NCBI GenBank assembly: GCA_030753015.1
Contig: JASMDC010000003.1
Coordinates: 64,001 to 128,000, forward strand
DNA from: Candidatus Undinarchaeales archaeon
GTDB lineage: Archaea > SpSt-1190 > JASMDC01
Length of the DNA stretch: 64,000 nt
Reading direction: 5' to 3'
Positions 2,076 through 57,516 of this stretch are shown here, piece by piece (position 1 is the first letter of the stretch; the number at the start of each line of letters is the position of its first letter). Position numbers and translations under genes: made by a program. Under the pieces are notes generated by a model, which saw only the letters and a program-made list of their open reading frames with translations, searched no databases and had not been told where the DNA came from.

Positions 2076-2128
2076 GAAAAAACCCATTTATATGGTTGCA
2101 ACCTACCACTTTCACGGGTACAGGTGAT
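2076..2128 (+). promoter_or_regulatory. Putative BRE/TATA promoter and GGTGA RBS of the giant surface-protein gene
   Basis: GAAAAAACCCATTTATATGG in an AT-rich intergenic region; AGGTGA lies 5 nt before the TTG at 2133. Confidence 0.55.
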
Positions 2129-2132
2129 CACT

Positions 2133-23584: not shown

Positions 23585-23649
23585 GGTACAGACCTTCCGA
23601 TGAACCACGGCCACTTATCTTCTTATGTCTTTAGTCCGCGCGGGGGAGC

Positions 23650-32214: not shown

Positions 32215-32338
32215 ATCGTGCCGTGTCGGCGCTATAGACTTATAATGGTTATCCACGGGCCACCGCCGACGCTACCACGGAATGAGAATGACAAAAGGAA
32301 AGGGTCTTAAGCAGGCGATGTCTGTTCATATATCTACC

Positions 32339-40056: not shown

Positions 40057-43000
40057 TTAAGGGTGGAATCCTCGGTAGTCGAGGTCCTCTTCCTCCTCGG
40101 TCTTCTTTGCCTTGGCATCGGACGTCGAACCCTCGTCACCGGGGTGCAGCCCCTTCCCGGGTGTGCTCGGTCCTGACACTGCACCGGGGTGCAGCCCCCT
40201 GGCCGCATCGCTCAGCTCCTCCTTGGGCTCCTCTTTCTTGGGGGGAGGTGCGGCTTGTTGAGCCTGTGCCTGCATGGCCTGTCCCTGCCCCCAGCCGCCG
40301 GCCTGCCCGCCCCACTGAGCGTTGTTCGCAGGCGTGGCGCGCCACGCTCCGCTCTGGCCGTAATACCCGCCGCCGCCATAGTACTGGTTGGCCATGTAGT
40401 TTGCCTGCTGTTGCTGCTGCCACGCACCCTGGGTCGCGACGGGGACTGCCTTACCGGGGAAGAACCGCCGTTTGACGGCCAGGAAGAGAGCACCGATGAT
40501 GACGATGACCTCGATGAAGTCCTTGATATTGGCCAGCACGCCGATCTGCTCGAGCACCGACTCCTGCTCGACCGCCACAACGACCTTGCGGATGATGGTC
40601 TTGTTGGGCAGCCCGCGCGGGACGGCGTTGATGATGATCACGTGGCTCCCGGGGATATGTCCCTGGACATCCACCGAGAGCGGGAAGGTGGCGTTCACGT
40701 CGATGTTCACCTTGAGGCGCTTGGTCCATGCGAGACCGACCAAAGTGGAATCGCTCTCGATGGTGATGTCGAAAGCATCGCGCAGGGAGCCGGTGTTCTT
40801 CACGGTGAAGGATAGGAGCTTGGTCTGCTTTTCCACCATAACGAGGGTTGCCTCGCTCTCGATCTCCGCGTCACAGATGCAGTCGGCCGAGTTGCGGCAG
40901 TTCTCACCGATGCCGGGAGCGCACTTCCGGTTGATGCAGTCATCAGGGGTACAGTCGACACGGCAAGAATCGCACTCCGTCGCCAGCTCGCACTCACCGT
41001 CACCGCACCCGCCACGACAGGAGTTGGTCTCAGGATCGCACTTCTGATTCCCGGGGCACTCACAATCGACGCAGCATGTTCCTGAGGTCTCGTCAGGGCT
41101 GTCACAGTGCTTGTCGCCGCACGCAATCCGATAGCACCCAATCTCGTTGGATTCGGGGCGCTGCGCGTCGCAGGTGAATCCGGGCATGCATGAGCAGTCC
41201 TTGGGAGCGCTAGCACAGTTCTCGCCCATGGACGTGTCGCACACCCCGTTGTTGAGGCAGTCCTTGATAGAGCAGTCCTGGGGACATTGGCCGCACTCGT
41301 TCTGACACTTGCCGTCACCGCACTCGGCCTTGGCGCACTTCTGGGATTGGTCGCAGGTGTACCCTTTCTCGCACATGCCTTCGCAGAAGCAATCTCCACC
41401 GCCGCTGCTCCGCACCATGCACTCGCTGTCCCCGTCGCACACACCCGTCTCACATGCCGAGCCGCAATCGCTCGCCTCGTAGATGCACTGGCCGAGGATG
41501 CACCGGTCCACGGAGCAGGCGTTCCCATCGTCGCATCCGCAGTCCTCGGGGCAGGTGTTGCAGTCCTCAGTGGCCTCGCACACATTGTTGGGGCACTCGG
41601 CGGTACAGGCATTGGTGGGGTCAGTGGGGCAGGGGTCCTCTGAGTCGGGCATACCGTCCATATCGCGGTCGGGCAGACAGCGGTCATCAGCACAGATGTA
41701 GGTGAACTCGAAGGCGGTCTTGCATGCCTTGTTCGAATCGGTCATGTTCCCACACCGCACGCACCGGGCAGCGGGATCGCAGATGAGCCCCATCTCGGCG
41801 CAGGACACCTCGGTGCCGGGCGTGCACACCGAGATCTGGCACGAGAACTCGATGTGGACGTTCTGGTGGCACATGTCCGTGCAGTCCTTGTCACCTTGGC
41901 AGGGCTTGCATGCGTTCTTTGGATCGCGCGGGCAGGGGTCCTTGTCATCGGCGAACCCGTCGTTGTCGTAGTCGGGCGCGCACCCGTGTGCCCATGTGGT
42001 GGTGGGATCACAGGTCTCCGTTCCCTTGCACTGGCAGTCCTGGGGGCAGTCGTTGCAGTCCTCTCCCTCGTCGCACTTGCCGTTGCCACACAACATCTCG
42101 CACCGGCCACCCTTGCACCCGAAATCCGTGCCGTAGGTGAGCGTGCAGTTGACATCCGACACACAGTTCACGCATCCCTCCCGGGTACAGATCCCACCTT
42201 CGGCCTTGCAGTCCTGCTCCGGTTTGTCCTGGCAGATATAGTTGTTGCACGACTGGCCGCGATAGATGTTCTGCTCGCAGGTGTACGGGCAGTTCTCGTC
42301 CTTGAAGCACTTGGCGACCTTGCAACCGAGGGTCTGGAAGTCGCAGGCGTAGTTCGCACCGTACTGTGCCTGGCACTGCTCGGTAGAGATGCACTGGAGG
42401 CAGCCTGTGGGCAGCTGACAGATCTGGTTGGAGCCGCCTGTGGAGCAGTCCTGGATGTCGGCACCAAGGATCTCGCACTTGAAGTTCTGGCAGGTATAGT
42501 TGAGGAAGGAGTAACGCTGGCACTGGTCCTCGCAGTGGGTGTCGTCCAGGCACTCCACGCATCCGCGATCCGAGTTGCACTGGAAGAGGATCTCCGAGCA
42601 GTCCGAGGACACAGCCTCGCACAGCCCGGTGTGGCAGGTATAGTTGAGGAAGGTGCGGCTACCGCCGCCACCACATTGGTTGGAGCACGGCGGGCTCGTT
42701 GCCTGGCAGTCGCCCACCTCATTGCACGTACCGGGAGCGTTGCTGTCACAGCAGATACTGCCGAAGGAGTTACAGGTGAGCTCACCGGTAGCGAGGTTGC
42801 AGCCTACGTTCCCACCACAGTCGAGGCGCCCGCAGTCCTTTCCGGGGAAGAAACCGGGACGCGGCGAGATGCAGGTGCCCGCGCAACAGAACCCACGGGA
42901 GTTCTCCGTGACACAGGGTGCCTCGTCAGGGAAGCACTCGGGCTTGCACAGCCATTCCTTGAGCGGATCGTCCACGCAGATGGGCTTGGAAGCGTCACAG

Positions 43001-46000
43001 TTGCGCACCTGACCGTTGGGGCAGGTGACCGCCTTGCTGCACTTCTTGGTACCGGGGTCGCACACGCTGTTACCACCGCACTCGCAGTCCTTCTCGCACG
43101 ACTCGCCCTCCTCCTTCGTCTTCTTCTCGACGCACGAGCCCAGCACACAGCACTGGGAAGTGCAATGGATATCCGACGTGCACCCCGTCATGCACGTTCC
43201 CACGGTTGGATCGCATATGTAGGAACCACACGAGTCCTCAGTGGGGATGTCGTACTCGCCGAGCTTTGAGCACTGGGTGGTCCGGGTTCGCCCTTCGTTG
43301 CACACGTGCCGCTCGAAGGTATCGCACAGCCACTCGCTCTCGCGGCACGTCACCTTCCCACCATCGCACTGGTTGAGACCGCACCCCCCGCCGGGATTCC
43401 ATTGGGCGCTGGACATGGCCTCGCACCCGTTGCCGCAGCAGAAACCACTGGTCCCCAGGTGCTCGCAGGCAGCAGCGCCGAAGGCCGAGCATGAGGCGCA
43501 GCGGTCGAGGCCCGTCTGGCCATCGATGTCGATGCAGGGGAACTGTGTCTGGCAGTCGATACTGGAGGCGCACGCCGTTCGGCACTGGCCCACCGAGGGA
43601 TCGCACGTATAAGGAGAGCAGTCGCCAAGGCTCGAGAACGCCCCCACGTTGCTGCACTGGCCCCGGAGTGTAAGGTCCGGCGAGCACACGGGATCACCAT
43701 AGGTATCGCACACCCACGAGTCATCCTCGCACTTCACAGCACCGTTGCAGTCCTGTTCACCGCAGCGGTTGGCGGGAGTCCACTCCGCTACGGGCGGTGC
43801 GTTGCAGGCATCGCCGCAGCAGAAGCCCGTCTTCCCGCCGAGGTCGCACACGGACGCCTCGTGGCCCGTGCAGGTGTCACAGGTCTCGGGGACACCATCT
43901 GTAGTGAGGTCGATGCAGGAATATGATGTGAGACAATGGTCGTTGGACACGCATGTGGTCCGACACTTACCTGTCGTGCCGTCGCACTTGTAGGGCACGC
44001 AGTTAGCGGCCTGGCCCGTGTTGAAGATGCCGGTCTGGGTGCAGGTGGAGGACTGGTCCTGGAAGCACTTGTACTGACCGGCGGTATTGCACTTCCAGTC
44101 ACCTGCGATGCACTTGACCTCTCCGTCGCACGGATTCTCACCGCACTCCGCCTCGGGGAACCATGAGAGATAGAGCATCCCCTTGCATGTTCCACCGCAG
44201 CAGTAACCCGAGAGGATATCCTCCTGGCACTTCCTCGATCCGTGCTTGTTGCATGTGGAGCACTTATCGAGCCGGCCGTTCCCATCGGTGTCGATGCACG
44301 TCAGTCCCGACTGGCAGTCGGCGTCTGAGATACAGAGCGCCCCTTCACCAGCCAGGTCCGTGCAAAGATGGGTGTTACGGTCACAGAATCCCGCCTCGCA
44401 CTCGCAGTCCTTGTTGCACGACTGACCACTGGGGAGCTTGGAGGAGTAGCACTTGTTGTTGCAGCACTCGCCCTCGCCCGCCACTGTGTAGCAGAGGCTT
44501 CCCTGAGCCATGCCCTCACACGAGTTGCAGGTGTCCACCTGCCCGTTGACGTCGCTGTCACGGCAGATCGGAGTACAGTGGTTGCCAACGCAGCATACGC
44601 CCGTCGTACCCTGTGTGTCGATGATCTTGTTACCATTGTCCTCAGCAGCGTCGCAGGTGCCGCACCGCCACCCATTGTTACCGGTCTTGTCAACGCAGTA
44701 ACCGGACTGACACTGATTGCCGTGCGTACAAGGCTGCCCGTCCACGTATTTACATGTACGCGGATTACCAGCGCACTTCATGTTGGTTGCGCACTCGCAG
44801 TCATTACCGCAGGGCTCGGTTACCCCCTTCCACCCCACGTTGCACAAGTTCGAGCAGCACTGCTTGATGACGCCGTTCTCATCGAGACAGCCCACGCCGT
44901 CCACGACGCAGTTCCCGCAGGTGTAGGCGCCGCTGGACACGCACTGGCCAGAAGAGCACAAGGCTGCTGAAGTACAGGTCTCGCCTGCTGAGAGCTTGCA
45001 CAGCCCGTTGTGGCACTCCGTGCCCACGTTGCACTCGCAATCACGCTGACACGGTGAGTTGATGGGTTTGGCGTAGATGCACTGGTTGTTGCAGCACCAG
45101 CCCTGGGCGAGCACATCGGTGGAGCAGGGGGTCTTTGCTAACATCCCCATACAGGTACCGCACGTACCGTCCACGCACACCTTGCTGGCGCAATCGCGGC
45201 CCGACTCGCACCCCTGGCCGTTGATCTTCTTACAGGTGTCAACGTTCGGTCCACCGTAGGTGTCGACGCACGTGAAACGGGTCTGGTCGCATACACAGTC
45301 CTTGCCGCACGGTGCGTTGAGCCCGCCCTTCTCGGGCGGGGTGATGCAGGTGGACGTGCAGCACTCACCCTGGATACCGGCCCCTTCATAGCATGTGTTG
45401 CCCTCGGTGCACGTCATGGCGCATTGGGTTGTGCCCGCATCGCAGATCTTGGCGCAGCAGGTGTCCCACGCCCAGGAGTTCCCGCATACCGAACCATCGA
45501 TACCCGCGGTGATCTTGCACGACATGCCGACAGCAGCCTGGTCGCACTGCCCGTTGGAGAGGCATACGCCGGAGGTGCAGTCAGTGCTCAGTGTGCACGT
45601 TTGGGCCTTCTTGAGCTTGCACTTCTTACCGATGCCCGTTTCGGTGCAGGCGAAGTTCTGGTGGCACTCGCAATAGCTGTCGCACGGTCCATCGAGCGCC
45701 TGCGGTGCCGCGCACTCGCCCCCGCAGCACCAACCGTCCGAGATGGTGATCGTCTTGCAGGCAGTGAAGTCATCGGTGTTGCACGTTCCGCAGATGCTCT
45801 CACCGGGGGCGCCCACGCACAGCCCCGTACCGCACTGATCGCCCGATGTGCAGGGCTGTCCGGCTGCCTTCTTGCATACAGCGCCGATGCATTCCATGTT
45901 CGATCCGCATTGGCACGTGAAGGTACAACCCTCTCCAAGGCCCTTGGGAGCCGTGCAGATGTTGTTGCAGCACTTACCAGAGGTGACGGTCGTGCTAGCG

Positions 46001-49000: not shown

Positions 49001-52000
49001 TAGCATCCCGTTTGGCAGCAGATGCCCGGGGTTCCGGAGCCCTCATAGCACTCCACCCAGACGTTGTTGCATGTATTGACGCAGGCCTTCGTCGCACCGA
49101 AGCAGAAGTTGGGCATCCCGCAGCATTGACCGCCGCAGGCCGTTCCCTTGGTACCGGGGTACTGGACGTAACACTTTGATGGGGATGTGAGCCCGCCGTT
49201 GCACACCTGGGGGTCCACGGCGCAGATGCTGTTGGCACAGTCCAGGCTCTTCTCGCAGGCCTGAGTCTCCTTGAGCTTGCAGAAGCCCTCGGTGCATTGA
49301 AAGGTCTCCTCACAGTAGCAGTCACTGACGCACGCCGCTCCTAGCCCTTGGCGTACCCGACAAGCATTATCGCAGCACAAACCGTTGAATCCGTCGCCCT
49401 CACATGCCACGCCAGCGTTCCCGGCGGTACATGCACCGCATTTATAGGTGCCGCCATCGCTGACGCAAAGGCCGGAGGAACACTGGGACCAGGAGGAACA
49501 GGTCCGACCGTTCTTGTACAGGCACTTGTTCCCCGTGCACGAGTACTCGGTCTTGCACTGACAGCCAGCGTTGCATGCATCGAACAGCCCACCCCGCTCA
49601 TCGAGCGTGAAACACTCGTTCTGGCAACATACTCCCTCTGTGCCGGCACCTTCGTAGCAGGTCGCACCGACCACCCCGCAGAGCACGACGCACTGGTCGT
49701 TGATGCAGAACGAAGGCAGCCCGCAACACTTATCCTGGCACACGGTCCCCTTTGTGGGATCGTCCATGAAACACTGGTTCGGACTGACCAGCGCCCCGTT
49801 GCACACGCCATCAAGGCTGCATAGCTTCTGGGAACAGTCGTCGCTCTGCGTGCAGCTCTGGCCCTCCTTGAGCTTGCACTTCTTCCCCGCCCCCGTGTCC
49901 GTGCAGCCGAAGGCCTCGCCGCAGTTGCAGTTCTGGGCACAAGCACCGTCCTGGCTGACCGGGGCAGTGCAGGCGCCGGTACAGCACCAACCGGTGACGC
50001 CATCAGCGGTGCAGTTGAAGCTCGTGTCCTTCCCGGCACAGCCTCCGCACACGTAGGCGCCGCCCGCTGTCCCCATGACGCACTCGCCGCTGGCGCACTG
50101 GGACCAGGTGGTGCAGGCCTCCCCGTCCTCCTTCTTGCACTTGTTCCCCGCGCACTGGAGCCCATCCTCGCATTCGCAGTGGTCCGTGCAGTCCTCGTCG
50201 AGTCCCAGGGGTGTGACACACTGGTTGAGGCAGCACCAGCCTGTGGCGGTCTCCGATTTACATGCATAGGTCAGGTCCTTCCCATCACAAGTGCCGCAGG
50301 TGTAATCGCCACCAGGTGTAGCCTGGACACACGCACCGCTGGCACACTCCGACCAGACCGTGCACGGGCCGCCCACCTCCTTCTTGCACTTCTTGTTGTT
50401 CTCCGGACCCGTGCATATTAGGCCTCCCGTGCACTGGCATGTAACCGTGCAGGACTCGCCGGAAGGCAACCGCTCAACGTCACGGACACACCCGTCGTTG
50501 CAGCACTTACCTTCTTGGCCGCCCTGGGAGCCCACGGTCTTGTAGCAGGTCGCTCCTCCGATAGCGCAGCCCGTCCCGCAGGTGTCGGGATCGGTGCTAG
50601 TGTCGCAGATTGTGGCACAACAGGCGTCAGCGCACACGGTCCCCGAGGGATTGCCCGTGAGCATGCACTTGGAGCCCGTGGCAGGGGTACTGCAGAGGCC
50701 GCTCGCGTCGCAGAGACCTGAAGAGCACTGACCGCTATCAGTGCAGGCCTGTCCGTTGACCTTTCTGCAGGTCCTGCTACCTTCCTCTCCGGCGCATTCG
50801 GTGTTCTCGACGCACTGGCAGTCGGCTGTGCAGGCCGTGCCCACGTCGCCAGGGATTGAACAGGCGTTTGCGCAGCACCGCCCGTCAGCTATCCCATTGG
50901 CGATACAGGCTGTCCCGTCATTCCCTGTGCACGATCCGCAGGTGTCGTCCACACAAACACTGTTGGCGCATTCGGACCAGGTCGTGCAATCCTGACCGTC
51001 CACCCGCTTACACTTGGTGCCCGAACACTCGAAGTTTGCCAGGCAATGGCAGTCCTGCGTGCATCCACTATCGAGACCCGCGGGGGCGATACACTGGTCA
51101 TTACAGCACAATCCAATGATGCCCTCGGCCTTGCAGGCGAAGGTCGCGTCCTTGGCCTGACATGAGCCGCATACGTAATTACCACCGGCGGTCTGTTGGA
51201 CGCACACGACGCTGGCACACTCGTCCCAGGCGGTGCAGGGTTCACCTGCAGCAAGGCGGCACGTCTTGCTACCCTCCGGGCCACCGCATGCGAGCCCGTC
51301 CTGGCACTCGCAGGTCTCGGTGCATGAAGTGCCCGCGGCCTTTCTCTCAGCTTCTCGGACGCACTGGTCATTGCAGCATGCGCCCTGCTGACCTCCCTGT
51401 CCTCCGGCAGTCTCGTAGCAGGTCTCTCCAGCGGAGGCGCAGGCGGTATCGCAGGTGTCGGGTTCGGTTCCCGTGTCGCAGATGTTGCTGCAGCACGCTT
51501 CGTTGCACACTGATCCGGTCGGATTCCCAGAGAGCAGGCAAGCGGCTCCGGTAGCGGGCGTCCCACAGAGGCCTGTGGCAGCACAGAGCTTCGAAGCGCA
51601 TTGACCGCTATCGGTGCACGTCTGTCCCGCCTCCTTCTTACAGCCATCGGTAGTGCACTGCAGGTTGGTATTGCACTTGCATGCCACGCCCCCGCAGTCA
51701 CCGTCAAGGGCGAGAGGGGCGAAACACGTGTTCTGGCAACACCATCCGTCGGCCACACCTTCCTTGGTGCAGGCCGTGAGGTCGTCCTGGTCGGCACAGG
51801 TGCCACAGGCGCCGTCCACGCACACGCCGCTAGCGCACTCAGTCCCGACCGTACAGGTCTGCTCATTGGCCTTCAGACACTTCTTTGAACCTTCTTCCCC
51901 AACGCAGTCCAGGTTCGCCTGACAGTGGCAGTCTAGTGTACAGGATCCTTCCGCCGCTACGAGGACGATACATTCGTCATTGCATAGGGAATAGCCATCC

Positions 52001-52449
52001 TCGCAGGTGGTCGTGGAGCACGCATTTTCAGTGCAAAGGAAATTGATGCAATCCGCCGCCTCGCAGCACTCGCCACCAATCATCCAGGTCGTATCGCAGC
52101 ATATGCCGCCGGTCTTTGCCTTGCACCCGTGAGCGTTGTTGCACTCCTGGCAGTCGTTGCACGTCAAATCGACGCAAATCTTATCCGAGCAGGTCTTGCA
52201 GTTATCGCATTCGTCGTCGGAACAGCAGTTCTTACCAACGAACCAGAACCCCATACAGCATATACCACCGGTTTTTTCCACGCATGCGTGGTCGATAAGA
52301 TCCTGGCAGGCGGTGCACACGAGGTCAACGCAGGCCCCGTCTTCACAGCTCTGGTCAGCGTTGCAGTCGTCGTTGGTAGTGCAAGCTGCGGATAAAGTTA
52401 CCACTAAAAAAAGCACGAGAGCTATAACGGTCCATATGGAGAGTCTCAT
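40057..52449 (-). CDS. Giant (4130 aa) Cys-rich type I membrane protein with a Q/Y/G/W-rich C-terminal tail
   Basis: Signal peptide MRLSIWTVIALVLFLVVTLSAA; ~3850 aa of dense Cys repeats; one Ig-like domain (FTVKNTGSLRDAF); TM EVIVIIGALFLAV-KRR; low-complexity tail. Confidence 0.92.
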   Translation of the reverse strand: MRLSIWTVIALVLFLVVTLSAACTTNDDCNADQSCEDGACVDLVCTACQDLIDHACVEKTGGICCMGFWFVGKNCCSDDECDNCKTCSDKICVDLTCNDCQECNNAHGCKAKTGGICCDTTWMIGGECCEAADCINFLCTENACSTTTCEDGYSLCNDECIVLVAAEGSCTLDCHCQANLDCVGEEGSKKCLKANEQTCTVGTECASGVCVDGACGTCADQDDLTACTKEGVADGWCCQNTCFAPLALDGDCGGVACKCNTNLQCTTDGCKKEAGQTCTDSGQCASKLCAATGLCGTPATGAACLLSGNPTGSVCNEACCSNICDTGTEPDTCDTACASAGETCYETAGGQGGQQGACCNDQCVREAERKAAGTSCTETCECQDGLACGGPEGSKTCRLAAGEPCTAWDECASVVCVQQTAGGNYVCGSCQAKDATFACKAEGIIGLCCNDQCIAPAGLDSGCTQDCHCLANFECSGTKCKRVDGQDCTTWSECANSVCVDDTCGSCTGNDGTACIANGIADGRCCANACSIPGDVGTACTADCQCVENTECAGEEGSRTCRKVNGQACTDSGQCSSGLCDASGLCSTPATGSKCMLTGNPSGTVCADACCATICDTSTDPDTCGTGCAIGGATCYKTVGSQGGQEGKCCNDGCVRDVERLPSGESCTVTCQCTGGLICTGPENNKKCKKEVGGPCTVWSECASGACVQATPGGDYTCGTCDGKDLTYACKSETATGWCCLNQCVTPLGLDEDCTDHCECEDGLQCAGNKCKKEDGEACTTWSQCASGECVMGTAGGAYVCGGCAGKDTSFNCTADGVTGWCCTGACTAPVSQDGACAQNCNCGEAFGCTDTGAGKKCKLKEGQSCTQSDDCSQKLCSLDGVCNGALVSPNQCFMDDPTKGTVCQDKCCGLPSFCINDQCVVLCGVVGATCYEGAGTEGVCCQNECFTLDERGGLFDACNAGCQCKTEYSCTGNKCLYKNGRTCSSWSQCSSGLCVSDGGTYKCGACTAGNAGVACEGDGFNGLCCDNACRVRQGLGAACVSDCYCEETFQCTEGFCKLKETQACEKSLDCANSICAVDPQVCNGGLTSPSKCYVQYPGTKGTACGGQCCGMPNFCFGATKACVNTCNNVWVECYEGSGTPGICCQTGCYTEDERKGLDGICAADCQCKGDFVCTLLACKLKDDRTCSAGNQCASSVCIEMTQDSYKCGTCGAGTTKKECSAGALTGWCCGAECVEPKSLDGSCTADCHCLNNYLCAGAVGNKKCKKVDGQTCTSWDQCVSGVCVDGMCGACGGSDFTTCSRDGVDDGWCCGVQCVAPQGLDAQCTSDCHCETTMQCVGAEGNKLCKLKNDQTCTDSAQCSSELCDAAGKCGTPTTGSKCMLGGTHAGSVCNDVCCANTCNTGTTPYTCGANCANAGATCYESDGGQGGQQGKCCNNNCIRQAEKQPLGQVCQVTCECDETAQLECTGGICKTKSGQPCTQGNQCGTNICVDGLCEECTQDKVSCQSGNTQSGWCCNGECVDAVPLNGVCTGNCNCQGDTELSCSFGIGLCKLTGGQTCSQSTDCDSKVCSAGGAACATNSGQGDLCKVDTNIDGLVCHDECCNGYCDSDSDVCNECGLGHACMKLVSGVKKYGSCCADQCFLTTDRKGYEKDCEEHCECGANLECAVATDNKCRMAAGQGCTNGTACASGACVSGICGTCVGKTDISTGCMTPTFSDGWCCAGACVSPKETGEDCVQNCECKVGMQCAGNKCKKNDGQSCTDSGQCASGICRTDSTCGPDDTGDICKIAGANIGTVCGSVCCNAICDVGLNLCSTTTCVEDHVCYENQGTQGSCCADACYTPGELLLLDAACVKSCQCKNTLACTDDAGGDKCKLKDGQTCTSGAECSSGVCVAGTCGTCAGKAISSQCKTATILDGWCCEGACVTHGALDAGCGADCQCQDQYSCTGLLCKLKNSQNCIHGEDCSSSVCVNDVCGTCVGKGKTNACDTQAVANGWCCADECVSPGELGDACTEDCQCKDQFLCTGFQCKRKNGEACISGDQCASDVCVQQTAGGNYVCGSCGGKSVDTQCKTGTVDDGYCCSGGCNRHKGQDEGCTVDCNCDPTFTCKDNRCKKKAGQACVTAGECAVGQCVAGTCRTCTGIVDFTSCASTTVTSGKCCNNICTAPKGLGEGCTFTCQCGSNMECIGAVCKKAAGQPCTSGDQCGTGLCVGAPGESICGTCNTDDFTACKTITISDGWCCGGECAAPQALDGPCDSYCECHQNFACTETGIGKKCKLKKAQTCTLSTDCTSGVCLSNGQCDQAAVGMSCKITAGIDGSVCGNSWAWDTCCAKICDAGTTQCAMTCTEGNTCYEGAGIQGECCTSTCITPPEKGGLNAPCGKDCVCDQTRFTCVDTYGGPNVDTCKKINGQGCESGRDCASKVCVDGTCGTCMGMLAKTPCSTDVLAQGWCCNNQCIYAKPINSPCQRDCECNVGTECHNGLCKLSAGETCTSAALCSSGQCVSSGAYTCGNCVVDGVGCLDENGVIKQCCSNLCNVGWKGVTEPCGNDCECATNMKCAGNPRTCKYVDGQPCTHGNQCQSGYCVDKTGNNGWRCGTCDAAEDNGNKIIDTQGTTGVCCVGNHCTPICRDSDVNGQVDTCNSCEGMAQGSLCYTVAGEGECCNNKCYSSKLPSGQSCNKDCECEAGFCDRNTHLCTDLAGEGALCISDADCQSGLTCIDTDGNGRLDKCSTCNKHGSRKCQEDILSGYCCGGTCKGMLYLSWFPEAECGENPCDGEVKCIAGDWKCNTAGQYKCFQDQSSTCTQTGIFNTGQAANCVPYKCDGTTGKCRTTCVSNDHCLTSYSCIDLTTDGVPETCDTCTGHEASVCDLGGKTGFCCGDACNAPPVAEWTPANRCGEQDCNGAVKCEDDSWVCDTYGDPVCSPDLTLRGQCSNVGAFSSLGDCSPYTCDPSVGQCRTACASSIDCQTQFPCIDIDGQTGLDRCASCSAFGAAACEHLGTSGFCCGNGCEAMSSAQWNPGGGCGLNQCDGGKVTCRESEWLCDTFERHVCNEGRTRTTQCSKLGEYDIPTEDSCGSYICDPTVGTCMTGCTSDIHCTSQCCVLGSCVEKKTKEEGESCEKDCECGGNSVCDPGTKKCSKAVTCPNGQVRNCDASKPICVDDPLKEWLCKPECFPDEAPCVTENSRGFCCAGTCISPRPGFFPGKDCGRLDCGGNVGCNLATGELTCNSFGSICCDSNAPGTCNEVGDCQATSPPCSNQCGGGGSRTFLNYTCHTGLCEAVSSDCSEILFQCNSDRGCVECLDDTHCEDQCQRYSFLNYTCQNFKCEILGADIQDCSTGGSNQICQLPTGCLQCISTEQCQAQYGANYACDFQTLGCKVAKCFKDENCPYTCEQNIYRGQSCNNYICQDKPEQDCKAEGGICTREGCVNCVSDVNCTLTYGTDFGCKGGRCEMLCGNGKCDEGEDCNDCPQDCQCKGTETCDPTTTWAHGCAPDYDNDGFADDKDPCPRDPKNACKPCQGDKDCTDMCHQNVHIEFSCQISVCTPGTEVSCAEMGLICDPAARCVRCGNMTDSNKACKTAFEFTYICADDRCLPDRDMDGMPDSEDPCPTDPTNACTAECPNNVCEATEDCNTCPEDCGCDDGNACSVDRCILGQCIYEASDCGSACETGVCDGDSECMVRSSGGGDCFCEGMCEKGYTCDQSQKCAKAECGDGKCQNECGQCPQDCSIKDCLNNGVCDTSMGENCASAPKDCSCMPGFTCDAQRPESNEIGCYRIACGDKHCDSPDETSGTCCVDCECPGNQKCDPETNSCRGGCGDGECELATECDSCRVDCTPDDCINRKCAPGIGENCRNSADCICDAEIESEATLVMVEKQTKLLSFTVKNTGSLRDAFDITIESDSTLVGLAWTKRLKVNIDVNATFPLSVDVQGHIPGSHVIIINAVPRGLPNKTIIRKVVVAVEQESVLEQIGVLANIKDFIEVIVIIGALFLAVKRRFFPGKAVPVATQGAWQQQQQANYMANQYYGGGGYYGQSGAWRATPANNAQWGGQAGGWGQGQAMQAQAQQAAPPPKKEEPKEELSDAARGLHPGAVSGPSTPGKGLHPGDEGSTSDAKAKKTEEEEDLDYRGFHP
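40137..40198 (-). repeat. 17-nt direct repeat encoding GLHPG twice in the giant protein's tail
   Basis: CACCGGGGTGCAGCCCC at 40137-40153 and 40182-40198. Confidence 0.85.
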
Positions 52450-53744
52450 TCTATCATCTGCCGTGCCCTCTGGACACGTTCGAGTGCTGTCTCTAATCGT
52501 TGCAGACCTTCTGACAGCGCACCTCCCTGTAACAGCTCAACGCTCTGTGAGAGATCGCTCTGGACCTCGTCCAATAAGAATAGCATTCGGGTACTATTTA
52601 AGGGTTCCGACGCAGTGTTGCGTTCTTCCTCAATCCATACGCGCCGTCCTGATGGGCTGATCTCAGCCCAGCGTTCCCAGCGCAACCGGCCCCGCTCACG
52701 CCACCCCTCCTCCCATGCTTCTGCGAACTTGCCCTCGCGTACAAGCACATCGAAGCCAGTGGGATCCGCAAGACTGTCACGCAGCCATCCGAGAGGCCAT
52801 TTTTCGTCCACAAGGATCGGTTTCGAGGCAGCGCTCCACGTGGGAAGGTCCTCCAGGGCATGTCCCGCGGAAGCACCGGCGGGATCCCCCACCAACTCCC
52901 GGCGTACGAGAGGTCCGACGCCTCTCCCCCCCACCGTAGCCTCCTCGATCCCACCCATGACGGTTGTGTAGGCGGTCTCTGTTCCGTCCATGCTCCCCAC
53001 GACCACCACTTCCGAAAGACGTCCGGCCAAGGATGCGAGCCGAGGGGCATCATCGCAGTGGAGATACATCATGTCGTCGACCGGACGCACGGGGAGCGAG
53101 AGAGAGGATGCGACCACGGGATCGCAATAGAGGACTGCACGTGTACCCTCGAGGGTAGGCGACAGTGTTGTGAGGGCACTGCCACAGAGACCGAGGGAGA
53201 GGTCGATACCTGGAGCGAACACTGCCGATGGCCCCAGTCGTCGAACCTCGCTCGCAACTGCTGCTGTAAGCTGACCAGGGACAAGGAGAAGGGGCGTGGC
53301 ACTGAGGCCTCGTGCCCGGATCATTGACACCAGGTCGTCCTGGCGAACTATGGCCACCGTGTCAGCTTCCCCCCAGAAGAACCGCGACACCTCCACGGAA
53401 GTACCCGTAGCTGTGGCCCCCCACAAGCGTACAGTGCGCGCATGAGCCGCGAGATCCTCCTCGAGGGCGGGCGGAAGCACAGCGGGACCCCCCACGAGCA
53501 CCACCAGCCGGGGCTTCATCTGCTCAAGCACACCAAGGGAGTGGGACCCAAGGGTGCCGTCCGTTGCGAGCACAGGTGCTCCCACAAGGCGGGCCGCTTG
53601 GGCAGCAAGGGCGCAGTCCAGGTGAGTTGCGGTCGAGCAGATGAGAACGGTGCCCACTTGTGGCCCGACCTGGCTCCCAATGCCGGCAAAGGAGGTGCTA
53701 AGGAGCAGGAAACAGCAGCAGATTAATGTGCAGGCCCGGCTCAT
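52446..53744 (-). CDS. Secreted cell-wall-binding repeat 2 (CWB2)-like protein
   Basis: Signal peptide; APVLAT...LVVLVGGPAVL....E..L.....VRLWGAT...TSVEV matches the CWB2 pattern. ATGA-coupled to both neighbours. Confidence 0.75.
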   Translation of the reverse strand: MSRACTLICCCFLLLSTSFAGIGSQVGPQVGTVLICSTATHLDCALAAQAARLVGAPVLATDGTLGSHSLGVLEQMKPRLVVLVGGPAVLPPALEEDLAAHARTVRLWGATATGTSVEVSRFFWGEADTVAIVRQDDLVSMIRARGLSATPLLLVPGQLTAAVASEVRRLGPSAVFAPGIDLSLGLCGSALTTLSPTLEGTRAVLYCDPVVASSLSLPVRPVDDMMYLHCDDAPRLASLAGRLSEVVVVGSMDGTETAYTTVMGGIEEATVGGRGVGPLVRRELVGDPAGASAGHALEDLPTWSAASKPILVDEKWPLGWLRDSLADPTGFDVLVREGKFAEAWEEGWRERGRLRWERWAEISPSGRRVWIEEERNTASEPLNSTRMLFLLDEVQSDLSQSVELLQGGALSEGLQRLETALERVQRARQMIE

Positions 53745-54706
53745 CGCCGGAGCGCCCCCCGATTGAGGATGACGCGGTTGGTCTTGCCGACGGGGGAGCG
53801 GGTAATGATACCGCGTTCCTCAAGGCCTGAGAGAATGCGGCTGAGCTTGGCCTTGGAAAAGTCCGTGGTCTTTTGAAGTTCCTTCTGGAGGGGAGGATCA
53901 TCAGAGTTCAGGATGGCCTCGATGACAACGCGCTCGTTCTCCTCCATCACTGACAGGATATCCTCTTCCCGCACTTCCTCCTCTCGATGAAGCTGTCGCA
54001 CACCTATCGAATAGCCGAGAACGAAGAACGCCACGGCCAGGCCTACGGCCATGGGAGTCCGGTCGGGCGGTGGGGGTACCGGCTCTGTGGCAGGGCTCCG
54101 CGCTGCTTTCTCGAACCCTACGTAGAAGGTCATCTCCTCTCCAGGTTCAAGGCCTCCCCGTCGCCATTCGAACGAGAGTTGTCGACCGTCCGTACGCACG
54201 ATCGCGTTGGGGTAGAGCACTGGCCGGGCCTGGGATGCTCGCCGCTGGAGGCTGACGGGCAGCACAAAGCCCTCCGGTAGGTGGGCGACGAGCTTGAAGT
54301 CGAGCACAGGGTCCTCCGCCCGGTACGTTAAGGAGAAGTCCATCCCTTCTTCCATGCTCCGCACAAGCTCGCCCGTGCTGAACCTGAGACTGATGTTCAC
54401 GATCCCCTCGGGAGCCAGCGGCTGCCTGAAAGGAATGACAACCTCCTTGGTATTCCATGGTCCGTCACGCACTGAATGGGTGAGGTTCCCCTGAGCATCG
54501 AAGACCTCCAGATCCTTCATCCCACCCAACAGCGAGAACGTCGTGGAATCGAGGGGCGTGCCCGAAGTGTTCTCCCCCACGATATCGATGCGCTCTACAC
54601 ATGTTCCATCCGGTGCGATATCAATATCGATGTAAAGTGAGTGGAAATACATATCGGCCACGGTGGGAGTAAGCAGGAGGAACGCCACGAGTAGCCAAGC
54701 TCGCAT
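53741..54706 (-). CDS. Membrane-anchored transcriptional regulator (extracellular beta-domain, TM, C-terminal winged HTH; COG2512-like)
   Basis: Signal peptide; beta-rich ectodomain; TM MAVGLAVAFFVLGYSIGV; ENERVVI...QKELQKTTDFSKAKLSRIL..LEERGII.R...GKTNRV. Confidence 0.88.
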   Translation of the reverse strand: MRAWLLVAFLLLTPTVADMYFHSLYIDIDIAPDGTCVERIDIVGENTSGTPLDSTTFSLLGGMKDLEVFDAQGNLTHSVRDGPWNTKEVVIPFRQPLAPEGIVNISLRFSTGELVRSMEEGMDFSLTYRAEDPVLDFKLVAHLPEGFVLPVSLQRRASQARPVLYPNAIVRTDGRQLSFEWRRGGLEPGEEMTFYVGFEKAARSPATEPVPPPPDRTPMAVGLAVAFFVLGYSIGVRQLHREEEVREEDILSVMEENERVVIEAILNSDDPPLQKELQKTTDFSKAKLSRILSGLEERGIITRSPVGKTNRVILNRGALRR

Positions 54707-54750
54707 TACGTCGGGGGAACGCGTCCAAGCTTTTTATTTATATACAAGCA

Positions 54751-56103
54751 TTATCGGCGCTGCCAGGCACCGCCTTGCTGCCCTTGCTGTGGATAACGAC
54801 TCCATCCCGGGGGTGCTTGGTACATCCCGGGGGCGCCTCCATATGCTTGGGGCTGCTGCCCCCATTGCTGCTGGTCGGAGGGAGGCTGGACTCCTCCCTT
54901 CTTATTCTTGTCAAGGTAATAGGTCTTGAAGAGGTACACCCCCAGAAGGGGTAGGAGCACGATCTCGAGGGCGTCGTAGAGCTCCTTGATGTACATGATA
55001 TAGCTGAAGAAGGTCTTAGTGAGGATGTACTCGAAGAGGCCCATGGGGGAAACTATGATGGTGTACTTCGTCGCAAAAAGCTCTTGGGCCTGATCCGAGC
55101 GCACCTTTATGATAATATCGCTCTGTTCTTGCTGTCGCCCGGAGAGGTAGGGGGCGATTAGGTCAACCCTGAACTGTTCCAAATCGCCGGGCTCCATAGG
55201 CTTGATCTGCTTGTACCAGTTCTTCATACCGAAGGAGCCATTGATTATGTCGACCACGTAGCTGTCGGTGATGTTACCTGCGTTCTCCACATCGAAGTAG
55301 AACACATGCTCCTCACCCTCCTGGATCTCCACGTTATCGTTGGGGAACGAGACCGATGGAAGGCACACACAGTCCTCTGTGTTCCGGCAGTTCTCGCCAA
55401 TGCTCGGGACACAGGCCGTGTCGTTGCATCCAGAAGGAGTACAGTCGAGGGAGCATGAGAGACATTCGGTGGGCTCGCAGAGTCCGTCACCGCACCGAAG
55501 GATGCAGCGGTGGAGCGTCGCGTTGCAGGCCTCGTCGGGATTATCGCAGCCGCAGTCCTCGCAGCACGAGCCAGACGTCTCGAAGGGTTTCTCGCACTTC
55601 CCGTCTCCGCACTCGATTTCGTAGCATCCACGCTCGTCGGCCCGTTCGTGGTTCGGATTGCAGTACCGATCGAAACAGGGGCAGTCCGTCGGGACGGTGT
55701 CACAGTTCTCACCGAGCTTGACGTCACACACCCGGTTGTTCTTGCACGTGTCCTTTGAACAGTCCTCGTCACAGAGGCCACATTCGTGCTCGCACTTCCC
55801 GTCGGGGCATACGGAGGCCGTGCATTTGGTGTACTTGCAGTGGTAACCCAGTTGGCACATGGAGTCGCAGAGGCAATAACCTCCGTCCCCCGGGATGACC
55901 GAGACACAGCCCTTCTCTCCATTGCACACCTTACCGTCACCGCAGGGGAATCCGCAACCTATGGTGTTGAAGATACATGACCCGGACCGGCAGAGCGCCT
56001 TAGTACAGGGATTGTCGTCCACGCATTCGAGGTCGTTCTGACATCCGGCGGCCAGGATGAGGAGCAGGCCAATCAGGAATCCCAGGGTGCGTGCAGGGGG
56101 GAT
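54751..56103 (-). CDS. Cys-rich type I membrane protein (~450 aa), short paralog of the giant protein's C-terminus
   Basis: The frame extends upstream of GTG 56022 into a signal peptide (IPPARTLGFLIGLLLILAAG-C). Cys pattern, Ig domain, TM and Q/G/W/Y tail are collinear with the 4130-aa protein. Start uncertain (see findings). Confidence 0.85.
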   Translation of the reverse strand: MPPARTLGFLIGLLLILAAGCQNDLECVDDNPCTKALCRSGSCIFNTIGCGFPCGDGKVCNGEKGCVSVIPGDGGYCLCDSMCQLGYHCKYTKCTASVCPDGKCEHECGLCDEDCSKDTCKNNRVCDVKLGENCDTVPTDCPCFDRYCNPNHERADERGCYEIECGDGKCEKPFETSGSCCEDCGCDNPDEACNATLHRCILRCGDGLCEPTECLSCSLDCTPSGCNDTACVPSIGENCRNTEDCVCLPSVSFPNDNVEIQEGEEHVFYFDVENAGNITDSYVVDIINGSFGMKNWYKQIKPMEPGDLEQFRVDLIAPYLSGRQQEQSDIIIKVRSDQAQELFATKYTIIVSPMGLFEYILTKTFFSYIMYIKELYDALEIVLLPLLGVYLFKTYYLDKNKKGGVQPPSDQQQWGQQPQAYGGAPGMYQAPPGWSRYPQQGQQGGAWQRR

Positions 56104-56132
56104 GTGACATCACCTCGCGGCGCCGCGAACCT

Positions 56133-56462
56133 TTAATTTCCACCGTCCTTCCGTCGAGAAAGGATCTCGAGCCCGGCATTGATGCCTATAAGGAGCTCGC
56201 TTATCTCGTGGGGGTCCGTCGTCGCCTCCAGCCTAGCTACGAGTTCATTGATTTTATAACTAACGATGCGGTCGAGCGGTCGAGCCTCCCCTTTCTTCTC
56301 GTTCGATACCCCCTGTTTCGAGCAACGGGGGCAGATGACCTTGCCCTTCACCTTGAAGAGTGGCGAACCACAAGTGGGGCAGTGCTTGGAGAGCATCTTG
56401 CCTCCTGCTAGAAGGAGCGTGGTCATCTCCTTGAGCGGATCTTCCTCCTCCATTATGCTCAC
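56133..56462 (-). CDS. UPF0148 / Sjogren's-scleroderma autoantigen 1 family Zn-ribbon protein
   Basis: LLLAGGKMLSKHCPTCGSPLF..KGKVICPRC. Confidence 0.88.
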   Translation of the reverse strand: MSIMEEEDPLKEMTTLLLAGGKMLSKHCPTCGSPLFKVKGKVICPRCSKQGVSNEKKGEARPLDRIVSYKINELVARLEATTDPHEISELLIGINAGLEILSRRKDGGN

Positions 56463-57271: not shown

Positions 57272-57516
57272 GTCACCCATCTACCGATCTTCGGATGAAA
57301 AAAGGCACGTGACCACATCCATTCACCGTGTATCGGGCATCCCGCGCTAGATATCCCAATCCAAGCCATCTCCAGGGTCGGTTCATCGAGGGAAATGGTT
57401 CCCGGAACCTTCGTCCACCATGAACAGCGCAGAATCAGTCTATCGCTCCCCGGTGACAATGGTTGGCCCGGATTATTCATTATCCTTGCATGGCAGATGA
57501 TTACATGGTGAGAACC

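Follow-up and report, generated by a model that had tools for sequence, protein, structure and literature searches.

Four co-directional ORFs were called on the minus strand at positions 40057-56103 of the window, the whole 64,000-nt stretch of DNA analyzed here (Table 1). In the order of transcription, they encode a short Cys-rich protein, a membrane-tethered wHTH regulator, a secreted 432-aa protein, and a giant Cys-rich surface protein; a crude hydropathy scan finds a hydrophobic N-terminal leader in all four. ATGA overlaps join the regulator gene to the 432-aa protein gene and the latter to the giant gene. A TATA-like sequence, TATATAAATAAAAA, lies ~32 nt 5' of the regulator ATG; by the archaeal TATA consensus and its spacing it is a putative TATA element. 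The gene inventory, the ATGA-coupled trio, and the promoter-like gap proposed in the initial annotation are thus all present.

Table 1. Features of the locus and its upstream neighbor (positions in the window; aa, residues of the respective protein)
Feature	Positions	Strand	Basis
Giant Cys-rich type-I surface protein, 4130 aa, 636 Cys	40057..52449	-	ORF and translation
Giant: signal peptide, aa 1-22, hydrophobic MRLSIWTVIALVLFLVVTLSAA	52384..52449	-	crude hydropathy scan
Giant: array of ~75-82-aa 14-Cys repeats, aa 22-2690, including ~125-aa expanded variants	44380..52386	-	self-iterated HMM
Giant: four larger, more divergent Cys-rich repeats, aa 2699-3217	42799..44355	-	weaker matches, same HMM
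Giant: two DxDxDGxxDxxDxCP motifs, aa 3493-3507 and 3594-3608	41626..41973	-	regex
Giant: anchor module, aa 3633-4002 (CGDGxC-type Cys repeats, beta-rich domain, TM)	40444..41553	-	paralog alignment
Giant: cytoplasmic tail, 133 aa, Q/G/Y/W-rich low-complexity, then K/E-rich end	40060..40458	-	sequence
Secreted 432-aa protein, divergent CWB2-fold domain and helical C-terminal part	52446..53744	-	model, homologues
432-aa protein: CWB2-fold domain, aa ~30-195	53160..53657	-	
Membrane-tethered wHTH regulator, 321 aa	53741..54706	-	PF24034, hydropathy
Regulator: wHTH, aa 257-314	53765..53938	-	PF24034
Regulator: TM, aa 217-237	53996..54058	-	crude hydropathy scan
Regulator: ectodomain, ~195 aa	54059..54643	-	
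Promoter-like intergenic region, 44 nt, with TATATAAATAAAAA at 54731-54744	54707..54750	-	sequence
Short anchor-module family member, about 450 aa, 44 Cys	54751..56103	-	translation
Short protein: TM	54928..54969	-	
Short protein: beta-rich domain	55057..55353	-	
Zinc-ribbon gene (Auto_anti-p27 family), 109 aa, upstream, co-directional	56133..56462	-	PF06677, E 1.8e-14

Independent studies have yielded DNA contigs that reproduce the locus sequence with 0 differences. All four genes are retained in the sister species G001, with the trio in the same order; its proteins are 87-91% identical to those of the window at dS of about 0.5, and dN/dS of the locus genes is 0.08-0.15. Because G001 retains the four genes and a gap-free orthologue of the giant, with low dN/dS and conserved cysteines, comparison of the two genomes indicates that these are not chance ORFs. 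RNA-library contigs, which can derive from DNA, map to the giant gene, and a single one (52349-52527), subject to the same caveat, bridges its junction with the 432-aa protein gene. Another, at 56061-56211, also possibly DNA-derived, spans the end of the zinc-ribbon gene and the start of the short gene. These two genes may share a transcript, and the short gene is probably transcribed separately from the trio.

The giant had been described as a Cys-rich single-pass protein, and its composition and topology agree with this: Cys accounts for 15.4% of the residues (His for only 0.9%), and the leader is matched by a C-terminal TM segment at aa 3978-3997, followed by KRRFF and the Q/G/Y/W-rich tail (crude hydropathy scan). 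The Cys density is flat, 12-19 per 100 aa, to residue 3900 and drops to zero beyond. A self-iterated HMM of the repeat yields 41 matches across aa 22-3217, or about 40 copies, with the weaker matches corresponding to the divergent repeats (aa 2699-2780, 2826-2907, 2954-3035, and 3136-3217). In 17 full units that were aligned, 13 Cys are invariant and one is nearly invariant. The two DxDxDGxxDxxDxCP motifs presumably resemble thrombospondin type-3 calcium-binding repeats, with no supporting Pfam match, and the beta-rich domain of the anchor module covers aa ~3860-3962. The G001 orthologue is also 4130 aa long and aligns gap-free at 91% identity, with dN/dS of 0.077 and all 636 of 636 Cys conserved. 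Given this conservation, the even Cys number (14) per unit, and the presence of a leader and a TM segment, the giant is most probably a real, constrained extracellular protein.

Searches of Pfam, NCBIfam, and PDB gave no match to the giant sequence, and no orthologue was found outside the genus. Strong matches to the repeat profile are confined to the giant and its orthologue in the second species of the genus, and a 1090-aa piece of the giant compared with 1.84 billion proteins retrieved two matches, its own cluster and a 67-aa fragment. The 14-Cys repeat appears to be essentially restricted to the genus. The AF2 model of the repeat has pLDDT of 54, and the structure search returned no fold match. 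The four genes had been proposed as a candidate new system. A conserved four-gene unit is not supported: since both the giant and its repeat are confined to the genus, synteny of the whole set is seen in one sister species only, and what recurs in other archaea, adjacent or fused, is the pair formed by the regulator and the CWB2 protein.

The cysteines of the giant might coordinate metals or buffer redox state, as metallothionein-like or Fe/S-binding groups, with no disulfides formed. The extreme and invariant Cys content would suit such a role, as would the finding that no VKOR-type disulfide oxidase is detected in the genome by PF07884. We nevertheless consider it highly improbable, because the even Cys number per unit, the fixed spacing, and the scarcity of His are typical of disulfide-knotted modules. 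In addition, disulfide-rich extracellular domains of the Kazal, Dicty_CTDC, and Stig1 types occur in paralogs, and the nearest Atlas clusters, at scores below 0.9 that make them leads only, represent Dickkopf_N/EB-type modules.

The short protein aligns to the anchor module of the giant with 35% identity (E 4e-57). It consists of a lipobox-like leader (LAAGC), CGDGxC repeats, a beta-rich domain, a TM segment, and a Q/G/Y/P/W tail; compared with G001, dN/dS is 0.113 and 44 of 44 Cys are conserved. The Cys-rich ORF of the initial annotation is therefore present, but its length of about 450 aa is counted from an ATC at 56103, and the first canonical start gives 423 aa. The ATC is conserved and the frame from stop to stop spans 452 aa in each species, with no in-frame ATG, GTG, or TTG 5' of the signal peptide in the window or in G001, so that the start codon appears to be non-canonical or unassigned. 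Of the C-terminal features said to be common to both Cys-rich proteins, the TM segment and the tail are indeed shared, whereas the term Ig-like for the beta-rich domain comes from sub-threshold matches (choice_anch_T, 30.3 bits against a cut-off of 70); in relatives, choice_anch_D and Cep192_D3 matches are weak.

The two Cys-rich proteins had also been interpreted as long and short ectodomain versions. That they form a dedicated pair is at odds with the distribution of the anchor module, which is common to at least 10 proteins of the genome (423-4130 aa) encoded at scattered positions, is present in 7 of 15 same-class genomes, and does not extend beyond the class. In own-genome paralogs and in same-class relatives, the TM segment is likewise succeeded by a Tyr/Gln/Gly-rich tail. 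The closest paralog of the giant, C46 (2502 aa), has its C-terminal ~1580 aa in common with the giant, but its N-terminal part includes a lectin-type domain, Laminin_G_3; this pattern is consistent with a shared stalk and anchor bearing variable heads. The genome contains 108 ORFs of at least 1000 aa, comprising 14% of its DNA, and the giant stands at the extreme of the organism's large set of giant Cys-rich surface proteins.

The 432-aa protein had been called a CWB2-repeat secreted protein. Pfam is silent on the protein itself, with PF04122 undetected even at E<=10, but its fold and homologues agree with the assignment. In the AF2 model, pLDDT is about 70-93 at aa 30-195 and 59 overall; two CWB2-like units are confident and the remainder is poor. 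When this model is compared with PDB by Foldseek, C. difficile CWB2 proteins take all of the top 10 places (E 1.6e-6 to 1.7e-5). PF04122 is matched by 13 of 15 aligned members of the family and by four checked own-genome paralogs at 43-59 bits (cut-off 24.9), and phmmer aligns the R..G..R/T..T motif region weakly with Cwp6 (E 0.061). By its predicted fold and its PF04122-matching homologues, this is a putative CWB2-type protein.

In C. difficile SlpA, CWB2 is the non-covalent anchor of the coat. By analogy, the giant and its paralogs could build an S-layer- or glycocalyx-like matrix, with the 432-aa protein as non-covalent anchor or assembly factor. The fold matches to SlpA, Cwp6, and Cwp8 suit this scheme, as do the CWB2 domains located toward the N terminus of several giant paralogs and the very large gene family, on which purifying selection is strong. 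However, the giant has its own TM anchor, making a wall-binding module unneeded, no wall polymer is known in the lineage, and a repetitive 4130-aa protein would, as far as we are aware, be atypical of lattice-forming S-layer proteins. Archaeal CWB2 domains elsewhere serve as ectodomains of wHTH regulators, making a sensing role at least as likely as wall anchoring. We therefore hold a coat of this kind to be unlikely. The surface-sensing and adhesion apparatus envisaged at the outset stands in part: a regulated surface apparatus is reasonable, and wall anchoring by CWB2 is an analogy with Firmicutes.

The regulator conforms to its description as a membrane-anchored HTH protein with an extracellular domain. 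Its MarR-like wHTH, on the cytoplasmic side, scores 42.2 bits with DUF7343 (PF24034; cut-off 27.6), and it is preceded by the TM segment and, after the leader, the ectodomain. The family is widespread in archaea, with members in many phyla (160 loci; Atlas clusters score 0.91-0.97), and no characterized DUF7343 or COG2512 member was found in the literature.

The link between the regulator and CWB2 proved stronger than first claimed. Among 79 regulator-family loci outside the genus, five have a co-directional CWB2 gene immediately downstream, and two more have one adjacent on the opposite strand; with a CWB2 neighbor in only 7 of 79 loci, most family members would work without one. The reverse count starts from PF04122 and covers 28 non-genus loci, drawn from 201 archaeal genomes: 10 encode single proteins with CWB2, TM, and wHTH parts, and three have a regulator gene directly upstream. 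Adjacent pairs occur in several other archaeal lineages and fusions in Thermococcaceae and two further archaeal families; all six fusions that were checked, from Thermococcus/Thermococcaceae, have both Pfam domains above cut-offs. The genome itself has a second regulator-to-CWB2 pair, on contig C50. These patterns suggest that the conserved core of the locus is the wHTH-CWB2 pair, an association that we did not find described in the literature.

We give about even chances to the trio being one operon in which a conserved archaeal cassette for extracytoplasmic sensing is joined to a giant surface protein specific to the lineage. This cassette would consist of the membrane-tethered DUF7343 regulator, with its ectodomain outside, and the secreted CWB2-fold protein, which may bind envelope glycan or another extracellular ligand and work with the regulator ectodomain. 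The wHTH would then set transcription from the TATA-like promoter just 5' of its own gene. The giant would be cargo captured by this envelope-sensing cassette. Its order (signal peptide, 14-Cys repeats, Cys-rich modules with two Ca-binding-type motifs, anchor, and Tyr/Gln/Gly-rich tail) suggests a structural or contact (adhesin-like) surface fibre, and judging by composition and conservation, the 14-Cys repeats, ~2,700 aa in all, probably make up an extended stalk stapled by disulfides.

The main challenge to the operon is that these genes might be mere neighbors, with the wHTH-CWB2 sensor controlling other genes, e.g., a transporter, and the giant located downstream by happenstance, so that no four-gene system exists. 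At none of the loci outside the genus does a giant come after the pair; the giant may accordingly be a passenger and not the target of the cassette. In one Thermococcus MAG, the fused regulator sits behind a binding-protein/FecCD/ATPase (ABC) transporter operon, a context more suggestive of solute sensing than of control over the envelope or surface. The genome has about 100 very large surface-protein genes and, with 108 ORFs of at least 1000 aa, a gene will not rarely have a giant as its neighbor by chance; the anchor-module family is likewise scattered. Yet the ATGA overlaps couple the trio, and the arrangement has been kept in G001 at the divergence given above. A similar order recurs on contig C36, where a 650-aa anchor-module protein is followed by a wHTH gene (4-nt overlap) and a 1455-aa Cys-rich Kazal-domain protein. 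Moreover, 7 of 8 CWB2-type proteins of the genome carry the domain within a chain of 1225-1859 aa, which ties CWB2 to large surface proteins in this lineage. We regard the reading as mere neighbors as rather improbable.

Several known systems resemble parts of the locus. The C. difficile CWB2 proteins (SlpA HMW subunit, Cwp6, Cwp8) share secretion and the fold of the 432-aa protein, but the latter lacks a PF04122 match, is paired with a membrane wHTH protein, has two confidently modelled units against what we take to be three tandem copies in bacteria, and comes from an archaeon with no known secondary wall polymer. The fused CWB2-TM-DUF7343 proteins of Thermococcaceae and the two other families contain the same two components as a single-chain counterpart of the gene pair; they are one polypeptide of about 320-405 aa without a P0003-type ectodomain, and the Thermococcus example has transporter genes in place of the giant. 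The regulator shares the C-terminal wHTH, single TM segment, and outside domain of the archaeal DUF7343 family. ToxR and CadC are also membrane-tethered one-component regulators, but the orientation is opposite, the window regulator having an N-terminal sensor and a C-terminal wHTH.

For the giant, presumed parallels are the Giardia VSPs, type-I proteins whose repetitive ectodomain is very rich in Cys and whose cytoplasmic tail is short. The nearest Atlas clusters, Dickkopf_N/DUF7107/EB-module proteins of eukaryotes and Myxococcota, score 0.79-0.89 and are leads only; a Draxin/Dkk-like alignment is weak (E 2.9), and comparison with eukaryotic and Myxococcota Cys-rich surface proteins gave no match that was significant in sequence or fold. 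Another possible parallel, within the DPANN-affiliated archaea, is the giant surface proteins of, e.g., nanohaloarchaea, which are very large, secreted or anchored, and presumed to act in cell contact; the giant differs in being based on Cys repeats. The source archaeon is marine, and its genome, at 3.85 Mb, contrasts with those of its small-genome class relatives.

The four genes on the minus strand of the window are real and under constraint, and the initial annotation had described their anatomy largely correctly: a short Cys-rich gene is followed by a trio, coupled by two ATGA start/stop overlaps, that encodes a transmembrane regulator, a secreted protein, and a Cys-rich giant. All four are present at the positions listed in the table. 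In the sister species, the sole other member of the genus within our genome collection, the same genes occur in the same order, and the giant orthologue, again of 4130 aa, aligns without gaps at 91% identity. With dS of about 0.5 between the two species, dN/dS is 0.077 for the giant and 0.148, 0.109, and 0.113 for the other genes. Every cysteine is conserved in the giant (636/636) and in the short protein (44/44). Sea-water DNA contigs from other sequencing studies cover the whole stretch with 0 differences. A crude hydropathy scan places N-terminal leaders in 4/4 proteins. The 44-nt gap ahead of the trio contains TATATAAATAAAAA, approximately 32 nt 5' of the first ATG; a scan for sigma-70 promoters and intrinsic terminators, which is unsuited to archaea, remained at the shuffle level (3 vs. 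3.3 and 11 vs. 8.9, respectively).

Two metatranscriptomic libraries, each from a different study, provide contigs that hint at expression and are compatible with co-transcription. They lie on parts of the giant, differing from it at 0-1 positions; one bridges the junction between the 432-aa gene and the giant, and two lie on the 5' region of the short gene. Such contigs show no strand, ends, or level, and the libraries may include DNA. They cover 8 of 30 bins of the stretch in one library (X19) and 14 of 30 in the other (X20), with none on the regulator gene, although gaps prove nothing.

Features of the window and of the loci compared with it (G000, genome of the window, which is C51:64001-128000)
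Feature	Location	Strand	Description
Regulator	53741-54706	-	321 aa, first gene of the trio
CWB2-fold protein	52446-53744	-	432 aa, second gene of the trio
Giant	40057-52449	-	4130 aa, third gene of the trio
Short gene	54751-56103	-	452 aa from stop to stop
RNA-library contig	52349-52527		432-aa/giant junction
Start region of the short gene	56022-56112	-	out-of-frame GTG/ATG just 5' of the short gene; L015 4130-4225 in the sister species
Zinc-ribbon gene	56133-56462	-	Auto_anti-p27, directly upstream of the short gene
VWA-domain protein	57463-58590	+	near the short gene
Giant secreted-type protein	2124-10214	+	2696-aa ORF, 4.2% Cys, Kazal_1 (E 1.9e-9)
Repeat-bearing protein	21899-23614	-	571 aa
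Transglutaminase-core protein	32282-34588	+	768 aa, with CARDB and NPCBM_assoc Ig-like domains
Second locus of G000 (L106)	C36:10261-17775		anchor-module protein, wHTH gene, 1455-aa protein
CWB2 protein, Hydrothermarchaeum profundi record	L036 7867-9621	-	585 aa
Fused gene, Thermococcus sp. MAG	L144 117-5032		CWB2-TM-DUF7343 gene and the transporter row before it

Residues 257-314 of the regulator match DUF7343 (PF24034; 42.2 bits, E 7.5e-11, gathering cut-off 27.6), besides weaker MarR-type matches, and this winged helix-turn-helix (wHTH) domain is predicted to bind DNA and control transcription. The cytoplasmic wHTH is preceded by a leader, an outside domain of ~195 aa, and a transmembrane (TM) segment that the hydropathy scan places at 217-237. 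The full-length architecture is common to the family: the regulator aligns end to end with homologues of 295-381 aa. Its neighbors in the ESM Atlas are DUF7343 clusters (scores 0.91-0.97), and in 9/10 clusters listed DUF7343 is found on 36-100% of members. The family is broad in archaea. Its relatives are encoded at 160 loci of the species-representative genome collection, and the best 80 of these include MAGs labelled as Hydrothermarchaeota, Nanohalarchaeota, Woese-, Aenigmatarchaeota, Thermococci, and Methanosarcinales, among others. Our literature search found no paper on DUF7343 and unrelated papers only for COG2512. Four other paralogs of the regulator in the same genome (on contigs C29, C76, C32, and C39) adjoin different conserved secreted proteins, of ~930-1050 aa at 4/4 loci and ~610-640 aa at three, which show homology to one another (E 1e-27 to 0).

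The second protein of the trio had been called a CWB2-repeat protein. Searches of its sequence against Pfam and NCBIfam return nothing, in Pfam even at E<=10, so that the PF04122 gathering score of 24.9 is not reached, and none of the 12 matches in a six-frame PF04122 search of its own genome falls in this gene. Against PDB sequences it has weak matches only (E 0.014 and 0.061). The fold and the homologues nevertheless favor the call. An AF2 model built on a 15-row alignment has pLDDT of ~70-93 at residues 30-195 (overall 59; below 50 at residues 196-312), with two alpha/beta units modelled with confidence at about residues 30-107 and 108-195. All ten top-ranked Foldseek matches in the PDB belong to CWB2 proteins of C. 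difficile (Cwp6, SlpA HMW, and Cwp8; probability 1.00, E 1.6e-6 to 1.7e-5), which typically contain three tandem CWB2 units. The 432-aa protein also matches proteins of its own genome and of other archaea at E 1e-11 to 1e-20. PF04122 is matched by 13/15 of the aligned sequences (best E 1.4e-19), and the homologous domains of the giants of its own genome score 43-59 bits against the cut-off of 24.9 in the paralogs checked. Sequence and model together make this a divergent member of the CWB2 fold whose C-terminal part is helical. Class-III binding proteins (CeuE, BtuF, and ZnuA-like) also resemble the model weakly in fold (E ~0.02-0.04). One member of the alignment matches PMT_2 (dolichyl-phosphate-mannose protein mannosyltransferase); this is likely the CWB2 protein of the H. 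profundi record, because it alone among the rows has a long membrane-like C-terminal extension.

The association between the regulator and the CWB2-fold protein is, on genome comparison, the conserved core of the locus. CWB2 genes were sought near 79 regulator loci outside the genus with an iterated HMM of the CWB2-type domain, many of these loci being cut by contig ends. At five of them (L090, L054, L039, L040, and L029) a CWB2-type gene lies directly downstream of the regulator on the same strand, and at two (L017 and L036) it adjoins the regulator on the other strand, the L036 pair being divergent. A second regulator-to-CWB2 pair is present in the genome of the window itself (contig C50). 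PF04122 was found in 37/201 archaeal genomes sampled. Among the best 28 loci outside the genus, a regulator gene lies directly upstream in three; in ten, both the CWB2 HMM and the regulator HMM, the latter with its TM-plus-wHTH part, match one and the same protein. The fused proteins belong to three GTDB families (8 + 1 + 1), and all six that were checked carry PF04122 and PF24034 above the cut-offs. That the two parts are adjacent in several lineages and also occur fused is an argument for their working together. Physical binding of the regulator ectodomain to the CWB2-fold protein is what we would infer; a complex prediction (residues 22-216 vs. 27-200) scored 0.00 and speaks neither for nor against it. 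The association was not found described in the literature searched, and no work on archaeal CWB2 domains was found among the matches listed.

The archaeal fusions also bear on the role of the CWB2-fold protein. The anchor reading of the initial annotation is an analogy with bacteria, in which CWB2 repeats attach S-layer proteins to wall glycopolymers, and binding of a cell-wall glycopolymer by the 432-aa protein is putative. A rival reading makes the giant a coat or matrix with CWB2 as its anchor; the fold speaks for CWB2, the fusions make an anchor role less certain, and we consider this reading unlikely. The link also raises the question of which ligands CWB2 domains have where there is no Gram-positive wall. 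Close relatives of the fused proteins are from Thermococcus and other Thermococcaceae. The fused CWB2-TM-DUF7343 gene of one Thermococcus MAG comes after a row of Peripla_BP_2, FecCD, ABC ATPase, and metallo-beta-lactamase-fold genes, a context suggesting that the device may sense solutes instead of envelope material. Thermococcus has genetic tools and might allow a test of the link, which provides a candidate sensor partner for an uncharacterised pan-archaeal regulator family.

The giant itself has a much narrower distribution. Cysteine accounts for 15.4% of its residues (636), spread evenly to residue ~3900 and absent beyond; a crude hydropathy scan places a TM segment at 3978-3997, with KRRFF and a tail rich in Q/G/Y/W behind it. 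One repeat, defined by a self-iterated HMM, gives 41 matches over residues 22-3217, with four larger variants within 2699-3217. The alignment of 17 full units contains 13 invariant and one nearly invariant cysteine per ~80 residues. The motif DxDxDGxxDxxDxCP occurs twice further on (residues 3493-3507 and 3594-3608, by regular expression), where Pfam gives no match; its DxDxDGxxDxxD core resembles that of thrombospondin type-3 calcium-binding repeats.

None of the databases searched accounts for the 14-Cys repeat. The giant matches nothing in Pfam, NCBIfam, or PDB sequences (the PDB being empty at E<=0.1), and for the repeat Pfam yields, at E<=10, nothing but an EF-hand match at chance level; Draxin at E 2.9 is the only match of its profile in the PDB. 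Thus Dickkopf_N, EB, and other Cys-rich Pfam modules show no significant match as curated models or solved structures. A search of a 1090-residue piece of the array against 1.84 billion representative proteins returned its own cluster, a 67-aa fragment, and nothing else. An AF2 model of one unit, built from the 17 internal repeats, reaches pLDDT 54 and, by Foldseek, finds no counterpart in the PDB. The ESM Atlas relates the repeats to Myxococcota clusters of the Dickkopf_N/DUF7107/EB type at scores of 0.79-0.89, below the 0.9 mark, and these serve as leads only. Nothing relevant to Undinarchaeota or to cysteine-rich giant proteins of DPANN was present in the literature listings. The cysteine content also raises the possibility that the giant binds metal or acts in redox chemistry. 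We consider this highly improbable, although no VKOR-type disulfide oxidase (PF07884) was found in the genome, which speaks for it.

The repeat profile is strong only in the two giant orthologues; a few paralogs have one weak copy each, and 3/15 other genomes of the class give marginal matches over part of it. The proposal of a conserved four-gene system is not borne out. The weak match of the 571-aa protein of the window concerns the CGDGxC-type repeats of the giant (E 6.5e-7); this protein also has a DUF4350 match just below the cut-off.

The C-terminal module of the giant (residues 3633-4002), which it has in common with the short protein (35% identity, E 4e-57), is distributed in another way. 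It occurs in at least 10 proteins of the genome and, in a six-frame search, in 7/15 genomes of the same class and 0/24 other archaeal genomes. Hence the proposal that the two Cys-rich proteins form a dedicated pair of long and short receptors is not supported. A 2502-aa paralog shares its last ~1580 residues with the giant and has Laminin_G_3 in its N-terminal part. Word-based homologue searches have limited sensitivity and a length window; they returned one cluster, at 90% identity, for the short protein and only the own fragment for residues 3217-4130 of the giant, and these blanks are weak evidence because the class relatives found by the six-frame search were missed.

Class relatives and paralogs likewise end in a beta-rich domain, a TM segment, and a Tyr/Gln/Gly-rich tail. 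The initial annotation called the pre-TM domain Ig-like. A beta-rich domain is present, and the label would correspond to sub-threshold matches: choice-of-anchor T (NF041740) at residues 251-349 of the short protein reaches 30.3 bits (E 2.2e-7) against a cut-off of 70 and does not match the C-terminal 447 aa of the giant, and the relatives give weak choice_anch_D (21.2 bits vs. cut-off 45) and Cep192_D3 (E 0.009) matches. Four small-genome relatives of the class (L097-L100, from G002, G004, G003, and G013) encode proteins of ~790-1400 aa with ~10% Cys and a Tyr/Gly/Gln/Arg-rich tail, one of which contains a Stig1 domain above the cut-off.

A second locus of the genome, on contig C36, repeats the pattern of anchor module, wHTH, and large Cys-rich protein. 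Here the gene of an anchor-module protein (650 aa, tail rich in Tyr) overlaps by 4 nt the DUF7343 wHTH gene that comes after it. Next are a protein of 1455 aa (10% Cys, three Kazal domains) and Cys-rich ORFs of 2166 and 2099 aa. This pattern speaks against a chance neighbourhood in which the cassette controls other genes; for it speaks that no giant follows the regulator-CWB2 pair outside the genus. We regard that alternative as a minority possibility.

Our preferred reading, about which we are evenly divided, is that a sensing cassette heads an operon whose cargo is the giant. The cassette, conserved in archaea, would comprise the membrane-tethered DUF7343 wHTH and its CWB2-fold extracellular partner. 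In this genus it would stand at the head of the operon, with a lineage-specific, disulfide-rich, TM-anchored member of a large surface-protein family as cargo, probably a long stalk for a surface structure or contact. A bolder version, which we find decidedly unlikely, holds that CWB2 and DUF7343, split or fused, constitute a widespread archaeal extracytoplasmic sensor of envelope state or external glycan, here, in a large-genome relative of the small-genome archaea of the Undinarchaeota class, wired to a disulfide-stapled stalk of more than 4000 residues with a Tyr/Gln/Gly-rich cytoplasmic tail; on an outside signal, for example on meeting another cell or particle, the cell would put out a contact organ of exceptional length. 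Neither repetitive surface proteins of giant size nor one-component regulators tethered to the membrane are new in kind. New are an orphan 14-Cys repeat at such scale, a class-wide anchor module with a Tyr-rich tail, and the wHTH-CWB2 association. The giant demonstrates that surface proteins made of Cys repeats in the eukaryotic manner, even very large ones, are within the reach of archaea.

The genome itself is unusual. At 3.85 Mb (3.6 Mb in the sister species) it is large, whereas the 15 other genomes of the class in the collection have 0.6-1.2 Mb; a search of the MAG for 16S rRNA was negative. ORFs of 1000 aa or more number 108, counted without overlap; they occupy 14% of the DNA, and 56 of them have at least 4% Cys. 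Thirty ORFs reach 2000 aa or more, among them one of 8347 aa, and some large ORFs carry Kazal or Dicty_CTDC domains. Modules of the Kazal, Dicty_CTDC, Laminin_G, and Stig1 types are found among these large proteins. The window contains another giant secreted-type protein, with a Kazal_1 domain, and a transglutaminase-core protein.

The start of the short gene deserves a separate comment. Its frame opens two codons ahead of position 56103 in both species, and neither has an in-frame ATG, GTG, or TTG ahead of the hydrophobic leader. In the window a canonical start codon first appears at 56022 (GTG; ATT in the sister species); direct reading of the sequences shows synonymous and conservative changes across the leader region, and ATC at 56103 is kept in both. 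A frameshift or assembly error was rejected: the sister species has the same frame without the homopolymer (C-run), and independent DNA contigs are identical, which makes a homopolymer frameshift unlikely. TGA read-through from an upstream ATG was also rejected, as this ATG exists in the sister species only. Initiation may therefore be non-canonical. An out-of-frame GTG/ATG is situated just 5' of the gene, and in the sister species an in-frame ATG mini-ORF of 8 codons terminates at the TGA. The zinc-ribbon and VWA-domain genes are its neighbors.
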